Shown: piece by piece, positions 8,265 through 27,110 of the stretch | Layout: the number at the start of each line of letters is the position of its first letter | How positions within the stretch are numbered: position 1 is the stretch's first letter | Virus record (IMG/VR): IMGVR_UViG_2724679359_000002 | Location: 8,398 to 72,397 of that record | Length of the DNA stretch: 64,000 bases | Source: a virus | Taxonomy: Duplodnaviria > Caudoviricetes | Strand: one strand, 5' to 3' | Translations under genes and position numbers: made by a program | The notes under the pieces: model-generated | Told to the model about the DNA's origin: nothing | Databases searched by the model: none | Seen by the model: the letters and a program-made list of their open reading frames with translations, nothing else

Positions 8265-8711
8265 TTACTTCCCTATCCACTCCAACGCCAGATCCCCAAT
8301 CCATTCACTGTCGCCGTCAGTAAAGCCTAGCAACTGGCGGCGCTCGTATTTCACCGTTGGCCCGTTCTTTGTGACTTTATCCCGTAAGCCGTAGTGATGC
8401 ACTCGCACCAGATTATTGACCTTACCGGTAAAGGTGACGGCGGCCTCATCGGCGTTGGATTCATTTTTGATATAACGGGCGGTGCGCAGCTTGGTAAACA
8501 TCTTGCGCTTGATGCGGCCTTGTTTATCGCGGCGTTTCTTCTTGCGCGGCACAAAGGGCGATCCGTCTGGGTTTTGCTGCGACTGAATATGCTTTTGCTG
8601 CCGCTGGCGTAGCTCTTTGGCTACCTGACGCATAAACGCGCCACGTGCCTGTGGGGATAATTGCGCCAGTAAAATTGATAGGGTTTGGTCTAGCTCATGC
8701 AGGTCATTCAT
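8265..8711 (-). CDS. S: Tail completion protein S
   Basis: QQNPDGSPF.PRK, MF.KLRTARY, VHHYGL, RQLLG. Confidence 0.9.
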   Translation of the reverse strand: MNDLHELDQTLSILLAQLSPQARGAFMRQVAKELRQRQQKHIQSQQNPDGSPFVPRKKKRRDKQGRIKRKMFTKLRTARYIKNESNADEAAVTFTGKVNNLVRVHHYGLRDKVTKNGPTVKYERRQLLGFTDGDSEWIGDLALEWIGK

Positions 8712-21248: not shown

Positions 21249-23853
21249 GGTTTGCTCCCTCTCGTAATTTTGCCACGCGGCTCATGACGCTAAATACCCG
21301 CTGGGCGGTGGTTGGTTGGCACTGGTACAAACAATAATCCTCTCTTGCCCGCCAGTTCTGGCCGCCGATGGTCAACGTTGCGCCACAAGCCAGTGATTGC
21401 GCTTGCTGTTTGCTGATGGAAAGCCCGATTGACTCGGCAAAATCGCGGATTTTTGTTGTCACTGGTGCCAGTTGTACGGTTTTTTCTTGCCGCTGGACGG
21501 CCTTTTCGGCTGATACCTGGCGTGATAACTCCTCGGCTGGCGTCAATGGATTAGTTTTAATCGTTGCTACCGGCGCGTTTTTAATCCTGCGCAATAAGGC
21601 CCGGCGTTCTGCATCGGTGAGTGCGGTGAAATCGATTATTTTTTCTTCTAATATTCTGTCTATGGCCTCCTCCGGTTCGCGTATTTTTTGCTCTACCGGA
21701 GAGTTATTGACAGAACTCCAAGGGACGGCGGGGCCGTCCTGAAAAACATCAACCCCCACGGCAACGGCGGGTTTCGCCTTTTTACGGGCGACAATCTTCC
21801 AGCTTTTTAGACGGGTGCATATGCGCGACGCCTCGCCCAAAAGCGGGGAATAGATGCCGTAAATCTTCTCGGTGGTTTCGCCGTAGGCGTTGGGCTGCTC
21901 GTTGTCCTGATAGGCGATACGCACGGTGTATTCTTCGCGGGGGATTAAGACGCCACCCTGTTGCATGATGTAAGTAGCAAAACAACTGACATCAGCCGCC
22001 GACATAACCGCATCCATAGCCGGATCAAGTAATAGCTTTTTCCCTCGCATTGCAGCCACTTTCGCTGCAATGTCTGCGGGGTCAGTTTCTTCATCAATCA
22101 GGTGCTGTATGGCTAACTTAAATTCATCTGATTTAATCAGGTCATTGAGTAGCTTGTTATTCAGCTTGCGCAGCTCTCGCCAGACAGTCACCGGCGGGGT
22201 GCCTATTGGCTGATATTGGCGGATTCGGTGGCGTGATGCCCAGGCCATAGCAAAGCGGGCCGTCTCTTTCATCGGCTTGCCGGTTTCATTGTCTAATTCG
22301 CCATCCAGCGCGTAACCATCAATATTTTTACTGATGTATTTAGCAATATAGGCGGTGGCGCTGCCTTTCTTCGGATCCAGCCGCTTGGCGGTAAACCGGG
22401 CGCTGGTGCGCTTACCTAATTCTGCACGATCCTCTTTTACGGCATAGGTGCGTATGATCTCAGTGATGGCGTGGCATTCTTGCGGTTTCATGAATAACAG
22501 TAAGTGCCAGTGCGGCGTACTGTCATGATGCGGCTCAGCGACACGAAAACCGTAGACGCGCAGATTTTCACGGCCCAGTTTGGAAGTAATGTTGCGCCAT
22601 AACTTGGTGAGATAGGCTTGCGCTTGTGGTGGCGTGGTGTAGTTCCATTTTGGGTTAGCGTGGCCGCTTTGGTTGTTAGCGTGATTTTTGGATGGGCAAG
22701 TAATGGTATAGAACATGCCCACATCATCACGCGACTGAGCGACCAGTTCGATCCCTTTCATGCGCGCCATCAACTCATGGCGGCGAATAGTCGGATTACT
22801 GATACTGGCGTCCACCATTGCCTCTAAAGAAACGGTGTTGCCCTCATCATCAACTAATTCATGTCGCTTGAAGAATTCACGGTTGCGGCGCTTTTGCTCC
22901 ATCCAGTCGGCCAGCGCTTCTTTGCTGATGTAAGGTGCGGCACGCTTATGGATCAAGCCAGCGGCGCGCAACTGGCTTTCTCGCCAATCATTACGCAGCC
23001 GCCACAATTTACTCTCCCACCAATCCGCATTAATCAGTCGGGCAATAGCAGAATGATAAACTGCACGATCCACTGGTTCATCTGGTTGGTTGGGCTTCGG
23101 CCCCAGCTCGCGCCAGTGCGGTGGCTTGACCCGTAAAGATCGCACTTCAAGCGCAATATTGCGATAAATGGTTAATAACTCGGCATCAGATAAGGTGCGG
23201 GTTTCGTCGGTGGGTGTTGATACCTCAGTGCAAAACATTTCATTAATGCGGCCAGCAACATCATTCGCCAGCGACTTAACCCGGCGCTTGTTTAGCTCGG
23301 CAAGGTGGCTGTAAATCCCCTGAAAATAAGCCATTAACTCAGATTTGCGGCCCTTGCTCACTCCCTGATATTCGCGCACAGCATCCAGACGTAACAATGC
23401 ATTCTTGCCGGTGCCGGTTAAGAATGCATTGGTATGTTTATCGCCATGGTTTTCACGTAACCATCTAATTTTATTTTGAAAGTGTGACTTAATAAAAATA
23501 GGCTGCTGATCAATGCGGGCCTCGACACCTTGCGGTGAATCAGCCCATTGCTGTTTCTCACGCAAATAGACTTGGCGCTCAAGCTCGGCGCGTTCCCTGC
23601 GCATTTTAAGTAAGGTTTGATTAGGCTCGCGTAATTCGGTATATCCCAATGCATTCAGGCGTTTCACATAGCGAATAACCAGCGGGTGAGATTTTGGTTT
23701 TGCTACCACTGCGACCGGTGCTAAAGATTGGTAGCCACCAATGGCAGGGCGCGGGGCATTCCATGAGTGCTCCCATTCAATAGAAACATCACCGCTGCCC
23801 GGATAAGGCAGCGGTGGTACTGGGGTGATGCGGCTTCGTGAATGCTCGGTCAT
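21229..23853 (-). CDS. A: Rolling-circle replication endonuclease A
   Basis: EPHHDSTPHWH (HUH), YIAKYISKNIDG, WSSVNN. Confidence 0.94.
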   Translation of the reverse strand: MTEHSRSRITPVPPLPYPGSGDVSIEWEHSWNAPRPAIGGYQSLAPVAVVAKPKSHPLVIRYVKRLNALGYTELREPNQTLLKMRRERAELERQVYLREKQQWADSPQGVEARIDQQPIFIKSHFQNKIRWLRENHGDKHTNAFLTGTGKNALLRLDAVREYQGVSKGRKSELMAYFQGIYSHLAELNKRRVKSLANDVAGRINEMFCTEVSTPTDETRTLSDAELLTIYRNIALEVRSLRVKPPHWRELGPKPNQPDEPVDRAVYHSAIARLINADWWESKLWRLRNDWRESQLRAAGLIHKRAAPYISKEALADWMEQKRRNREFFKRHELVDDEGNTVSLEAMVDASISNPTIRRHELMARMKGIELVAQSRDDVGMFYTITCPSKNHANNQSGHANPKWNYTTPPQAQAYLTKLWRNITSKLGRENLRVYGFRVAEPHHDSTPHWHLLLFMKPQECHAITEIIRTYAVKEDRAELGKRTSARFTAKRLDPKKGSATAYIAKYISKNIDGYALDGELDNETGKPMKETARFAMAWASRHRIRQYQPIGTPPVTVWRELRKLNNKLLNDLIKSDEFKLAIQHLIDEETDPADIAAKVAAMRGKKLLLDPAMDAVMSAADVSCFATYIMQQGGVLIPREEYTVRIAYQDNEQPNAYGETTEKIYGIYSPLLGEASRICTRLKSWKIVARKKAKPAVAVGVDVFQDGPAVPWSSVNNSPVEQKIREPEEAIDRILEEKIIDFTALTDAERRALLRRIKNAPVATIKTNPLTPAEELSRQVSAEKAVQRQEKTVQLAPVTTKIRDFAESIGLSISKQQAQSLACGATLTIGGQNWRAREDYCLYQCQPTTAQRVFSVMSRVAKLREGANRESHPH

Positions 23854-25007
23854 TCAGTGACGCCAGCCAGATCAATAGCTATCCACAGGGGCGTGGCTAA
23901 ATATGCCCTAATGAATGCTTCTGTCGTCGGAGCATTAATGGCGTTTCCGTAGGCGCGCAGTCGTCCCACGCGATTGGTAATCCCATCAACCAACGGGAAT
24001 GTGCCGGATTCAGCTGGCCGCCACTTTCCATCCCTGCACAGGAGCCAGTCAGCATCTCGCCAGAAGCCATTAACCGCGCCGCCTGATGCAACGGAAGATG
24101 GTCTCGGCTCCCAATTGAATTGATCACTACTGTCGTGAGGCTTTCCTGAGTTCCTTTCTTGCCCGTGTTCCGGTTCTGATACCCCAGTCGGGCCTCTGTT
24201 GCTAACGGTGTCGGCCATCCCGCTAAAAGAACCTGCCCGTTCAATGTCATGCCGCCCTGCCTCAACGGCGGTGTCTTGCTGCCTTTCCCATTTCCCGCTG
24301 TTGGCGTTGTCCATCCCGACAAGGTAGCTGCTAGCGTTAAAGGCATTCCACCCTGCGCATAGGGCTTCGTTCGTTGGGCTGTATCGCAAGTCGGTGTCGG
24401 CCAGCCCGCTATGGCTGACGCATTCGCCAGCGTGTCCGTGAAATTCCCTTTCCGCATTTGTCTGCCCAACCCCGACACCCCCTTGTAATCTCTGGTCGTC
24501 GGTGTCGGCCACCCAGAAGAGGCGCTGCCTGATGTTCGGCGCACCGAAGCCCGCAGCGCAAAGATCGACCGCTGTTGGGGAGTAATTCGCACTTTCCAAG
24601 TCAGCTTGTACAAGGTCGAGCCATGTAAGGCCGTCTTTGCTTGCAACCTGCTCACCAAAAATTGTTGGTGGCCGGCGCTGTTGGATGAGGTGAAAGAATG
24701 CGGGCCACAGGTGCCGCTCATCATCAAACCCGCCGCCTTTGCCTGCCGCGCTGAAAGGCTGGCAAGGGCAAGAGCCTGTCCAAACTGGCTCGTCGTCAGG
24801 CCATCCAGCTTGTCGCAAGGCATATGACCAGACGCCGATTCCTGCAAAGAAATGGCACTGAGTGAATTCTCGTAAGTCGTCGGGTTTGACATCTTCAATA
24901 CTCCGCTCATCAACATAGCCGGGGGCAATATGACCGGCTTTAATAAGGTTTCTCAGCCACTGGGCTGCATAGGGATCAATCTCGTTGTAATAGGCGTTTG
25001 TGGTCAT
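23850..25007 (-). CDS. DNA cytosine-C5 methyltransferase, alpha chain (no motif IX)
   Basis: FFAGIG (I), SCPCQPFS (IV), GEQV (VI), PNIRQR (VIII), RAYGNAI (X); YNEID and SIEDV (II/III-like) precede motif I. Confidence 0.88.
23897..24928 (-). CDS. Nested alternative-frame ORF, putative MTase beta chain (WPTP repeats, motif IX-like end); true start may be 24724
   Basis: 343 codons open inside the MTase gene; four GW(P/T)TP repeats; [16 protein letters not shown]. Confidence 0.65.
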
Positions 25008-25822
25008 ATTGCCGCCCCCAAGGTCGCAATGATTTCACCTACAGCTTTACGACCATCGGCTTTACAACTGGCAGAGCGGGGGGCGGTGATGCTGTGAATA
25101 TCGAAACTTTCGTAAAGATACCGGCCGTGTGGAGTATCGCTGTTCGATGCAATAACATGGCAACCCTGACCTGCGGTGATCGTGAGTATTTCCGACAACC
25201 AAAATTGCTCATTAGAACCAAAGCCGCTGGTGTGGTAACTGGTAAAATCTGCGGTCGTGGATGTAGGGATATAGGGCGGATCGCAATAAACCACGTCGCC
25301 CGGCATGGTCATTGTTAATGCTTCGGAAAAATCACAGCATACAAACGTGGCCTTTTGGGCTTTTTCAGCGAAATAGCGGATCTCGGTTTCGGGGAAATAA
25401 GGCGCTTTATATCTTCCGTAGGGAACGTTGAATTCGCCTTTTTGGTTATAGCGGCAAATACCGCCATGGCAATGACGGTTTAAATATAAAAACATGGCGG
25501 CGTTGAATTCGTCGCTAAATTCACGCTCATTAAAAGATTGGCGATTAAAATAATAATCAGCCTCGTTGTTATCTAATCTGAAAAGCTCTTCCGCAAGAAC
25601 AATGACGGTTTTATAATCTTTTTGTAATTGCTGATAGAAATTAATTAAATCGCCGTTAATGTCAGCAATTAAATATTCGTCATAATCAGTATTCAGCATA
25701 ATTGAGCATGACCCGGCGAACGGCTCTACCAGCCGTTTACCTGCGGGTAGATGCTGGCGCAAGATTGGCATAATACGGCCTTTGGAACCGGCCCATTTCA
25801 GCGGGGAGAAAATACGTTTCAT
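25004..25822 (-). CDS. dam: Dam-family DNA adenine methyltransferase
   Basis: LKWAGSK, VEPFAGS, YN.KGEFNVPYG, YCDPPY. Confidence 0.93.
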   Translation of the reverse strand: MKRIFSPLKWAGSKGRIMPILRQHLPAGKRLVEPFAGSCSIMLNTDYDEYLIADINGDLINFYQQLQKDYKTVIVLAEELFRLDNNEADYYFNRQSFNEREFSDEFNAAMFLYLNRHCHGGICRYNQKGEFNVPYGRYKAPYFPETEIRYFAEKAQKATFVCCDFSEALTMTMPGDVVYCDPPYIPTSTTADFTSYHTSGFGSNEQFWLSEILTITAGQGCHVIASNSDTPHGRYLYESFDIHSITAPRSASCKADGRKAVGEIIATLGAAI

Positions 25823-26457
25823 GATTTCACCCCCGCCATGGCACGGATAACACCTAGCGTTGTTTTGCAATCGGCAAGTGCGCGGTGCGGCGTTCCATCA
25901 ATAACAACGCCTTGTTGTTCGGCTGCATTACTCAGCCTTTGCCATTTAAATTTATTCCGCTTCTCATCCCGCTGGCCGTAATACTCAGCATAATTGCGCA
26001 TGGCGCATTCGGCGTTAAGCTCAAGAGAACCAAAGCCGCAGCCGTTTATTCCCGCTGTTTGCAGAATTAACCGGACATCAAAATCAACGTTGTAAATAAC
26101 TAGTATTCTGGTGTGGATGAGCGCCATGAGTTGCCAATGAATATCACGCCATGTTGGGGCGGCGGCGACCATTTCATTCGTAATACCATGAATCGCAGTT
26201 ACCTCGGCTGGGATGGGATTGTGTGGCTTAACCAACGTATTGAGCAATACCTTACCGGTGCAATCGATAATGCATATTTCTATAATCTCGGCATCTTTGC
26301 CAAGGCCCGTGGTTTCGGTATCCAGAATAAGACAGTTATCTTTTAGCCATTTTTTGGCTCGGCGCTTTGCAATTAACTTGCAACACAACTTTCCGGCCTT
26401 ATTAATGAGTCGGAAGAAAGAACAGATCAATGGAGGGAGCGAATTATTAGTATTCAA
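25819..26457 (-). CDS. DEDDh 3'-5' exonuclease
   Basis: LDTETTG, IHGIT, YN..FD, HRALADC. Confidence 0.9.
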   Translation of the reverse strand: MNTNNSLPPLICSFFRLINKAGKLCCKLIAKRRAKKWLKDNCLILDTETTGLGKDAEIIEICIIDCTGKVLLNTLVKPHNPIPAEVTAIHGITNEMVAAAPTWRDIHWQLMALIHTRILVIYNVDFDVRLILQTAGINGCGFGSLELNAECAMRNYAEYYGQRDEKRNKFKWQRLSNAAEQQGVVIDGTPHRALADCKTTLGVIRAMAGVKS

Positions 26458-27110
26458 AATGGGATACCTTCGTCAGAACCATCACGGTAACAATCTATAG
26501 AATCAATTCCATCAAATGAGAGCATGACGTAGTTGGGTATAGCGAAATCACATGGAGTCACGTGCGTAACTTCAACTACAATACTCCGCCCTGAATATCC
26601 GGCGTTTAATTCCCACTCATTTAAAATTAAACAATCTCCGACAGAATAATCACGGTCATTCAGTCGCAATTCAGCTTTTTTATATCCGATGAATACGGCG
26701 TCGAAATACTCCGGGATTATTTTTAATGCATGAAATGCTGGTACCCCCCGCATATCCAACGCTTCCCTGTAGGCTGATTCGGTTTTACTAATGGCTGAAA
26801 TAACATTAATCACAGTCTGGTGTGCGTAATTAGTGGTGCAGCCTTTGCCGTGCGTTGTTGCTTCAATCGCCGCTACTATCGAATCCAAGTAGCCTGATAC
26901 TTTCATTGCAGCACCGGAAACTATTTCCACCTGTTTTCTCAATGCATCTATAGTGACTGATTGTTTATTGATCGCGCGCTCTAGGTAGGCAAGATCAGCA
27001 AGGGCCTTATCTTTCTCCCCATGAGTAAGGCCATGCTCCGGACGTCTGTTAATAAAATTTCGTAAATATATAATTGCTGGAATGTCTGTATTTTCTTTCT
27101 GCTTTTCCAT
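26454..27110 (-). CDS. Protein with C-terminal ASCH/DUF3850 domain
   Basis: HALKIIPEYFDAV..G.KKAELRLNDRDY.VGD.LIL.EW. Confidence 0.8.
   Translation of the reverse strand: MEKQKENTDIPAIIYLRNFINRRPEHGLTHGEKDKALADLAYLERAINKQSVTIDALRKQVEIVSGAAMKVSGYLDSIVAAIEATTHGKGCTTNYAHQTVINVISAISKTESAYREALDMRGVPAFHALKIIPEYFDAVFIGYKKAELRLNDRDYSVGDCLILNEWELNAGYSGRSIVVEVTHVTPCDFAIPNYVMLSFDGIDSIDCYRDGSDEGIPF

Follow-up and report, generated by a model that had tools for sequence, protein, structure and literature searches.

A selected gene nested in the +1 frame of an orphan C5 cytosine methyltransferase gene in a P2-like prophage

Can the part of a C5 cytosine methyltransferase that recognizes DNA be encoded inside the gene of its catalytic chain, in another reading frame? 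The question is raised by a locus on the minus strand of a P2-like prophage, located in the 64,000-nucleotide stretch of DNA analysed here (the window; positions 8,398 to 72,397 of the 72,397-base IMG/VR provirus record IMGVR_UViG_2724679359_000002), in which the methyltransferase gene is present as a single copy. A first-pass annotation, made from the sequence alone, had proposed that the enzyme is split over two nested frames, here called alpha and beta. Both open reading frames were found on the minus strand where it had placed them, alpha from 25007 to 23850 and the second frame from 24928 to 23897, the latter being free of stop codons over 343 codons counted from a TTG. The two genes, as we now define them, are as follows.

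23850 to 25007, minus strand: alpha gene, coding for the catalytic chain of a C5 cytosine methyltransferase (open reading frame, 385 aa and stop)
23897 to 24892, minus strand: beta gene, nested +1-frame chain, wholly within alpha (open frame, 331 aa and stop)

The hidden frame is confirmed to be a real, selected nested gene within an orphan phage C5 methyltransferase gene and not a product of chance; its openness, the switching of the codon-position pattern along the locus, and its own Shine-Dalgarno sequence and ATG all bear out the proposal. Selection acts on both frames, on each within segments of its own, and the start of beta is conserved. From sequence, structural models and analogy we consider it likely that alpha and beta form a two-chain phage methyltransferase of the M.EcoHK31I kind in which the whole recognition region resides on the nested chain.

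Openness, selection and start of the second frame

Homologues of the gene were collected in two sets. The viral set comprises 82 loci and the window gene (83 genes), and the replicate set, drawn independently from bacterial and archaeal genome contigs, comprises 80 loci, 79 of them with motif IV. The +1 frame is open in 83 of the 83 viral-set genes, over 265–641 codons (median 316) and covering at least 77% of alpha, and in 79 of 79 replicate-set genes, over 249–604 codons, although the relatives share ancestry and these counts are not independent events. The +2 frame is open for only 36–118 codons in the viral set (79 entries with the alpha frame correctly picked) and for 34–237 codons in the replicate set. 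One further viral locus, L002 from Pseudomonas phage PACT201, was excluded from all counts; there the homologue is interrupted several times in both frames, and what the record annotates as DNA methyltransferase is no more than a C-terminal fragment. In three loci (L012, L024, and L048) the beta frame is open for 617–641 codons and extends far upstream of the alpha start, as if continuous with an upstream gene.

The longest +1 open stretch of the window gene is 351 codons; the corresponding stretches of seven other window genes and of E. coli K-12 dcm measure 35–89 codons. When the codons of the window gene were shuffled synonymously with respect to alpha, none of 500 shuffles reached 351 codons, and the maximum was 277. 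The same procedure was applied to 39 non-redundant genes, 500 shuffles each. In 25 of them no shuffle reached the observed length, and in the remaining 14 at most 20 of 500 did so. The shuffles also revealed that the +1 frame is inherently stop-poor, with 3–10 stops per gene and a mean longest open stretch of 107–254 codons. Stop counts were compared with expectation in 25 of the 39 genes, 14 being skipped where the landmark patterns failed. Beta-synonymous shuffles predicted 75 stops in alpha's middle and none was seen; in beta, over alpha's core, 4 stops were seen against 37 expected in the same 25 genes.

The frame under selection was followed along the alignment by per-column nucleotide diversity at each codon position, keeping in mind that one beta codon consists of alpha positions 2 and 3 and the next position 1. 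Over alpha codons 1–75 the alpha third position is the most variable (0.51–0.58 vs 0.14–0.20), and by this pattern the segment is constrained in alpha only. Over codons 76–165 third-position diversity falls to 0.38 and then 0.34, with positions 1 and 2 at 0.17–0.28; this reduced diversity at alpha-synonymous sites points to an extra constraint, as expected if beta is constrained there too. Over codons 166–240, which hold repeats, the alpha first position, equivalent to the beta third, becomes the most variable (0.61 vs 0.43 and 0.36), the signature expected of beta-only coding, and this answers in favor of beta the question of which frame is under purifying selection in the repeat region. A low diversity with the beta pattern is seen over codons 311–345 (0.25 vs 0.15 and 0.15), and the alpha pattern returns over codons 346–362 (0.41 vs 0.19 and 0.16). 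Amino-acid conservation changes frame along the gene in parallel with these values.

Beta also has a start of its own.

24890 to 24904, minus strand: beta translation start, GGAG (24904-24901), 8-nt spacer and ATG (24892-24890), a conserved column in the beta alignment

The ATG stands at one column in 34 of the 39 rows of the alignment, and GGAG is found 8 nt upstream in 33 of those 34. Four loci (L001, L007, L011, and L012) have neither the ATG at this column nor GGAG, and a fifth, L025, is misaligned here and has its ATG one codon further on. In the replicate set 48 genes have both elements, 11 neither, 7 the ATG only and none GGAG only, with 13 not evaluable. Both elements use choices that are synonymous in alpha: the ATG is taken from Asp-Val encoded as GAT Gxx, and GGAG from Arg-Ser encoded as xGG AGy. 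The ATG lies 115 nt into alpha, and many database proteins of the beta family begin exactly at ATG 24892. The first-pass annotation had offered the TTG at 24928 and a codon at 24724 as candidate starts; neither is conserved, and ATG 24892-24890 takes their place. The second chain is wholly inside the first gene, in another frame and with its own start, one of the traits by which the M.EcoHK31I kind is recognized.

Parts of the two chains

Three segments can be distinguished in alpha.

24507 to 25007, minus strand: alpha codons 1–167, catalytic core with motifs II/III-like, I, IV, VI and VIII (from codon-position pattern, AlphaFold2 model and motif coordinates)
24072 to 24506, minus strand: alpha codons 168–312, unconstrained linker kept open only (from codon-position pattern, predicted local distance difference test score (pLDDT) of about 30, and stop counts)
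23853 to 24071, minus strand: alpha codons 313–385, conserved C-terminal block and motif X helix (alpha conservation 0.76–0.88, alpha-type codons 346–362, helix pLDDT 83)

All five motifs named in the first reading were located: motif I as FFAGIG (codons 53–58), motif IV as SCPCQPFS (79–86), motif VI as FGEQV (117–121), motif VIII as RQRLFWVA (160–167), and motif X as YGNAI (353–357, at 23937-23951). Among 35 alpha sequences C80, P81, C82, Q83, E119, R160, and R162 are invariant. Pfam PF00145 covers only alpha residues 77–177 (E 6e-14), alpha matches phrog_363 (E 2e-90), and the alpha profile aligns to M.HhaI 76–174 with an E value of 4e-15. The alpha model matches M.HhaI, M.HaeIII, DNMT1, and DNMT2 over the large domain only; for M.HhaI, Foldseek gave an E value of 4e-8 and VIA-align a Z score of 11.5 with a root-mean-square deviation of 3.3 over 153 of the 327 residues of M.HhaI. 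On motifs IV (with the catalytic Pro-Cys), VI and VIII and the modeled large-domain fold, alpha can be assigned to the PF00145 C5 methyltransferases.

The region between motifs VIII and X is of a different character. First positions are the most variable over linker codons 168–312 (0.58–0.64). The AlphaFold2 model has an ordered core at residues 1–170, a pLDDT of about 30 at 176–319 and a confident final helix at 359–371. No Pfam or NCBIfam profile covers alpha codons 168–312. Neither a target-recognition region nor motif IX was found in alpha between VIII and X, its codons being unconstrained and modeled as disordered, so that conservation, codon-position pattern and model agree with the earlier observation that alpha lacks these parts. 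Judged by sequence and model, alpha alone is the large domain only.

The N-terminus of alpha appears to be permuted, as had been suggested. A motif II/III-like beta-alpha-beta unit (24834-25007, alpha codons 1–58) precedes motif I, and FFAGIG stands after the II/III-like segment, only 9 residues ahead of motif IV. FFAGIG is invariant among the 35 alpha sequences, and its alignment to M.HhaI 13–32 is by itself below significance. VIA-align superimposed alpha model residues 3–378 on M.HhaI 34–327, beginning past motif I of M.HhaI, and the NCBIfam dcm superfamily model aligned, below its cut-off, alpha 6–199 with model positions 25–191. The order II/III before I is supported because VIA-align places alpha residue 3 on M.HhaI residue 34, the dcm profile places alpha residue 6 on position 25, and FFAGIG aligns, weakly, to M.HhaI 13–32. 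The canonical order is retained in the relatives from Paenibacillus, Lactobacillus, and Synechococcus phages; motif I is displaced only in the proteobacterial-phage branch of the family.

Beta likewise has three recognizable parts beyond its leader.

24533 to 24685, minus strand: beta residues 70–120, predicted helix and beta-hairpin, dual-coded with alpha motifs VI–VIII (pLDDT 78–86; alpha third-position diversity 0.34–0.38 vs 0.51–0.58 upstream)
24089 to 24511, minus strand: beta residues 128–268, four GW(P/T)TP modules (anchors 24511-24500, 24403-24392, 24313-24302 and 24217-24206)
23954 to 24076, minus strand: beta residues 273–313, conserved C-terminal block with a motif IX-like segment at 23966-24016 (beta conservation 0.81–0.91, the highest of the chain; beta-type codons)

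The DNA anchor of the modules, CGGTGTCGGCCA, occurs exactly at 24206, 24392, and 24500, with a WTTP variant at 24302-24313; allowing up to two mismatches there are 16 matches in the window, vs a mean of 4.49 in shuffles. The anchor reads WPTP on the coding strand, where the order is WPTP, WPTP, WTTP, WPTP at 24511, 24403, 24313, and 24217, with spacings of 108, 90, and 96 bp, and where the three exact anchors lie the alpha frame gives VADT, LADT, and MADT. Anchors, spacings and the alpha (V/L/M)ADT reading are all exactly as first described. The mean pLDDT of the beta model is 50, and only residues 70–120 are confident. Beta matches phrog_1008 (E 7.5e-34) and phrog_31772 (E 3e-39), its only PHROG families, both named 'DNA methyltransferase'. 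The NCBIfam scan of beta gave no match, and the ESM Atlas no usable one.

An informative intermediate is, by its sequence, gp58 of Gordonia phage Gudmit (locus L088, 784–2169), in which the recognition region seems to be divided between the frames otherwise than in the window family. Here the catalytic frame itself bears two PTP modules, a IX-like block and motif X, the block standing in frame about 12 residues ahead of motif X. The nested +1 open reading frame of Gudmit (1067–1576, 169 aa) has the hairpin and three LLPTP modules and is without the IX-like block. By hhalign the IX-like block of the window family was aligned to the in-frame segment of gp58 just before motif X with an E value of 0.0028 and a probability of 11%. 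For the cyanophage beta BLASTP gave an E value of 0.026, and BLASTP of the window beta against gp58 was not significant.

A probable two-chain enzyme and the alternatives

The constrained parts of beta occupy exactly the position that the target-recognition region and motif IX have in single-chain enzymes, and the constrained pieces, namely alpha I–VIII, the beta modules with the IX-like block, and alpha X, are colinear with a canonical single-chain enzyme. In the arrangement that we favor, one mRNA region would serve two genes. Alpha would be the large catalytic domain, bearing the motifs for S-adenosylmethionine binding and catalysis as well as the closing motif X helix, its halves being joined by a linker of about 145 residues whose sequence may vary freely as long as it stays free of stops. 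Beta would be translated in the +1 frame, with a Shine-Dalgarno sequence and ATG of its own, and would consist of a free N-terminal leader, the folded helix-hairpin, four GW(P/T)TP modules, and the conserved C-terminal block. It would act as a small DNA-recognition domain made as a separate chain, which would bind alpha to assemble the active enzyme. As an orphan methyltransferase of the early replication operon of the prophage, such an enzyme may mark phage DNA against host restriction.

Several points weigh against this reading. Where beta lies over alpha's core, its conservation may be due in part to hitch-hiking on alpha. The modules are modeled with low confidence (pLDDT below 50), and a wide structure search brought up nothing meaningful for the helix-hairpin, with a Z score of 3.7 at best. 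The beta profile found 0 matches at E ≤10 among the sequences of solved structures, a Pfam scan of all 35 beta sequences returned noise only and no PF00145, and hhalign of beta with Dcm of E. coli K-12 gave only a spurious match in the motif IV region (probability 0.09). Since solved structures and Dcm alike gave no match, the name 'motif IX' rests on position, pattern and one weak alignment. Of the claim that the chain ends in a motif IX-like segment, position and pattern have held, the statistical likeness is weak, and the block is tied to motif IX by its position and by weak statistics, short of proof.

Could beta then be a genuine nested protein that is no methyltransferase subunit, having a role of its own, for example as a DNA-binding, regulatory, or counter-defence protein? 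Its lack of any detectable sequence or fold relation to solved methyltransferase domains, the absence of a curated family and the in-frame fusion of some relatives to PF01555, not to a C5 domain, would be compatible with that. These fusions, however, still tie beta to DNA methylation, and the constrained parts of beta fall exactly between alpha VIII and X, where alpha itself has no recognition region or motif IX. Moreover, the pairing of alpha with beta is kept across phages of several bacterial phyla, and Gudmit has the same kind of modules and IX-like block in its catalytic chain. We hold a separate role for beta to be unlikely.

The colinearity noted above is also what would be seen if a single polypeptide were made by programmed ribosomal frameshifting, with the ribosome passing from alpha to beta after motif VIII (+1) and back before motif X (−1), so that I–VIII, the target-recognition domain, IX and X are joined in the canonical order. 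Under such a mechanism neither frame has to be open beyond the segments that are joined. Alpha's middle nevertheless has 0 stops where 75 are expected, and beta is open for about 127 codons upstream of the first module, with 4 stops vs 37 expected. Two polypeptides are favored over one doubly frameshifted chain because each frame is open beyond its constrained pieces and because beta has a conserved Shine-Dalgarno sequence and ATG of its own. The conserved slippery site by which programmed frameshifting would be recognized was not found at the frame junctions. An X XXY YYZ heptamer occurs between the IX-like block and the beta stop in 0 of 39 genes, a run of at least five identical bases lies near the alpha-to-beta crossing in only 3 of 33 genes, and no element is conserved at this crossing beyond the coding of motif VIII. 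We know of no precedent for two efficient frameshifts in one gene, and this too counts against frameshifting, which appears very improbable. That the second frame is untranslated and open only through base composition and the amino-acid make-up of alpha can be given almost no weight: the +1 frame is indeed intrinsically stop-poor, as the 3–10 stops per gene in the synonymous shuffles indicate, but in each gene set the open stretches observed are longer than in the shuffles, a beta-type codon-position pattern in the middle cannot come from a non-coding frame, motifs and start signals are conserved in the +1 frame, and gene callers choose that frame in thousands of contigs.

A further question is whether the modules are exchanged. 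The window gene has four modules. In 39 relatives, whose units read GW(P/A/T)TP, there are 2–5 anchors per gene, 7 genes including one false anchor, and by eye other family members have from 1 to 8 or more modules. Recognizable module types recur at different positions among the relatives, and alignment gaps begin and end at anchors, a pattern that fits gain, loss, and shuffling of units; the expectation that module number and order would vary is borne out to this extent. Typing of the modules by single-linkage clustering was too coarse for other purposes (one cluster holds 69 of the 140 modules) and was used only for the recurrence of types; one 'type', in 7 genes, is a false anchor inside the hairpin. 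The three identical anchors of the window gene were considered as a sign of recent recombination and rejected as such, since this 12-mer is more common overall than any other anchor and identical anchors are only modestly in excess within genes. Identical anchors make up 25% of 61 within-gene pairs vs 11% of 3260 between-gene pairs, and recombination between anchors, which the first-pass annotation had put forward, is by this measure only weakly indicated.

A bolder extension is that beta is a detachable cassette shuffled by recombination, by which one catalytic chain methylates several targets, module swaps retune or widen protection from restriction, and the linker of alpha has merely to stay open. 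We regard this as doubtful. If it were true, then, together with the family size and host range given below, no known family of functionally coupled gene pairs in prokaryotic viruses, fully nested on the same strand, would come near this one in size, and nature would here offer a toolkit of cytosine methyltransferases that are split and programmable.

Family, operon and known systems

The beta profile matches 20,774 clusters (50% identity), 7,911 of them at E ≤1e-30. Of 8,000 scored candidates 7,457 match beta at E ≤1e-3, and the best 120 are all without a Pfam domain. By tblastn beta was found in 286 of 50,697 phage records, and the hosts span Proteobacteria, Firmicutes, Actinobacteria, and Cyanobacteria. 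The same +1 nesting is not confined to phages of Proteobacteria: it is present in Paenibacillus phage Rani, whose record notes 'g50 Internal gene', in Lactobacillus phage Lc-Nu and in cyanophage S-H1 (Synechococcus). In E. coli phage K1H the inner open reading frame is annotated 'Mte8-like', and in Xanthomonas phage PhiXhv-18 both frames are annotated. A Yersinia thracica contig holds a 97% identical copy of the window gene.

No Pfam or NCBIfam model exists for beta, and therefore annotation loses one of the two chains, either beta or, where beta is called, the catalytic one; gene callers pick the beta frame in thousands of contigs. The assertion that standard annotation misses beta is correct as regards these models and too strong as regards GenBank, in which several phage records annotate the inner open reading frame. 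We found no description of this phage family as a two-frame enzyme in the literature searched; the inner frame may be mentioned in supplementary tables to the papers on the Paenibacillus and K1 phages. If the enzyme has two chains, half of it escapes studies of the methylomes and of restriction evasion in these phages.

Fused forms longer than 580 aa are represented by 11 proteins, two with PF01555, one with PF12705 and PF10926, and one with PF00476; PF00145 was not found among the 11, which as a negative is weak evidence. In P0269 (877 aa) and P0271 (660 aa) a beta-type chain is fused in frame, at its C-terminus, to the N4/N6 DNA methyltransferase domain PF01555, and P0269 has two beta units in tandem before that domain. 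The closest database relative of beta, P0001 (317 aa, 69% identity), consists of about 29 alpha residues, the beta frame, and the alpha C-terminus with motif X. It is without catalytic motifs or the IX-like block and is probably an indel variant or an assembly error.

The early operon of the prophage contains, in order, a DnaQ-like exonuclease, a D12-class Dam methylase, the alpha/beta gene, and the replication protein gpA. ATGA stop/start overlaps connect Dam with alpha (25004-25007) and alpha with gpA (23850-23853), and suggest a translationally coupled early operon with two orphan methyltransferases. A third ATGA overlap, between exonuclease and Dam (25819-25822), is probable if Dam begins at ATG 25822. 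No restriction enzyme was found among the neighbors of the methyltransferase gene in the window. Upstream of the exonuclease, a 218-aa protein (26454-27110, minus strand) matches phrog_32803, of unknown function, with its N-terminus and phrog_986, named 'RNA-binding protein', with its C-terminus.

As an example of dual coding on one strand, the locus is unusually long and clean, having an alpha-only segment, a beta-only segment, two dual-constrained segments and a linker selected only for openness. This mix of segment types in one gene makes it useful for studying the evolution of overlapping genes. In phage lambda, too, Rz1 is in the +1 frame and the products of Rz and Rz1 form one complex. 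These spanin genes are described as a case of one gene embedded in another (bioRxiv 10.1101/2022.06.14.493971). They differ from alpha and beta in that the proteins and their function are unrelated to those discussed here and in that Rz1 is short, as against about 330 nested codons here with dual constraint over parts of the overlap.

The tandem modules recall the C5 methyltransferases of Bacillus phages (SPR, phi3T, and rho11s type), which are orphan single chains with tandem short recognition units between motifs VIII and IX, each unit having been shown experimentally to confer one specificity. Both have several short tandem units; those of the window are on a separate nested chain. In natural circular permutations of the M.BssHII type, motifs IX and X are reported to precede I–VIII (PMC5944983). 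The window gene resembles them in departing from the order I to X and differs in that motif I alone is displaced and stands between III and IV.

In the account of PMC3404938, C5 methyltransferases of two chains figure as rare exceptions, M.AquI and M.EcoHK31I being the two; the nested two-chain layout proposed here would instead belong to a very large and widely spread phage family. M.AquI (CYCGRG) is alike in being split within the variable region, with DNA recognition depending on the second chain, and unlike in that this chain comprises the distal variable region with IX and X and is not nested through the first gene (PMC3404938). In the window gene, motif X remains on alpha.

The small chain of M.EcoHK31I has about 61 aa. 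M.EcoHK31I itself, from E. coli HK31 (YGGCCR), is the C5 methyltransferase of Lee, Kam and Shaw 1995 as described in PMC2836561 and PMC3404938. According to these sources its large chain has motifs I–VIII plus X, and both chains are needed for activity. A different frame within alpha encodes the beta chain, and methylation was abolished when its internal starts were silenced (PMC2836561). The predicted target-recognition domain remains with the large chain, and the small one contributes just motif IX (PMC3404938). M.EcoHK31I was used for targeted-methylation tools (PMC2836561), for which an enzyme split by nature, with recognition on a chain of its own, is likewise of practical interest. On these descriptions M.EcoHK31I, which the first reading had named, is the right precedent (PMC2836561, PMC3404938). 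In both systems the smaller chain is wholly nested in the gene of the larger, in another frame and with an internal start. They differ in that the window's alpha has no target-recognition domain on the large chain, its region between VIII and X being unconstrained and disordered, and in that the nested chain, compared with that of M.EcoHK31I by description only, has 331 aa with the helix-hairpin, all the modules and the IX-like block. The placing of the whole region between motifs VIII and X on the nested chain, as proposed here, would be new relative to the M.EcoHK31I layout.

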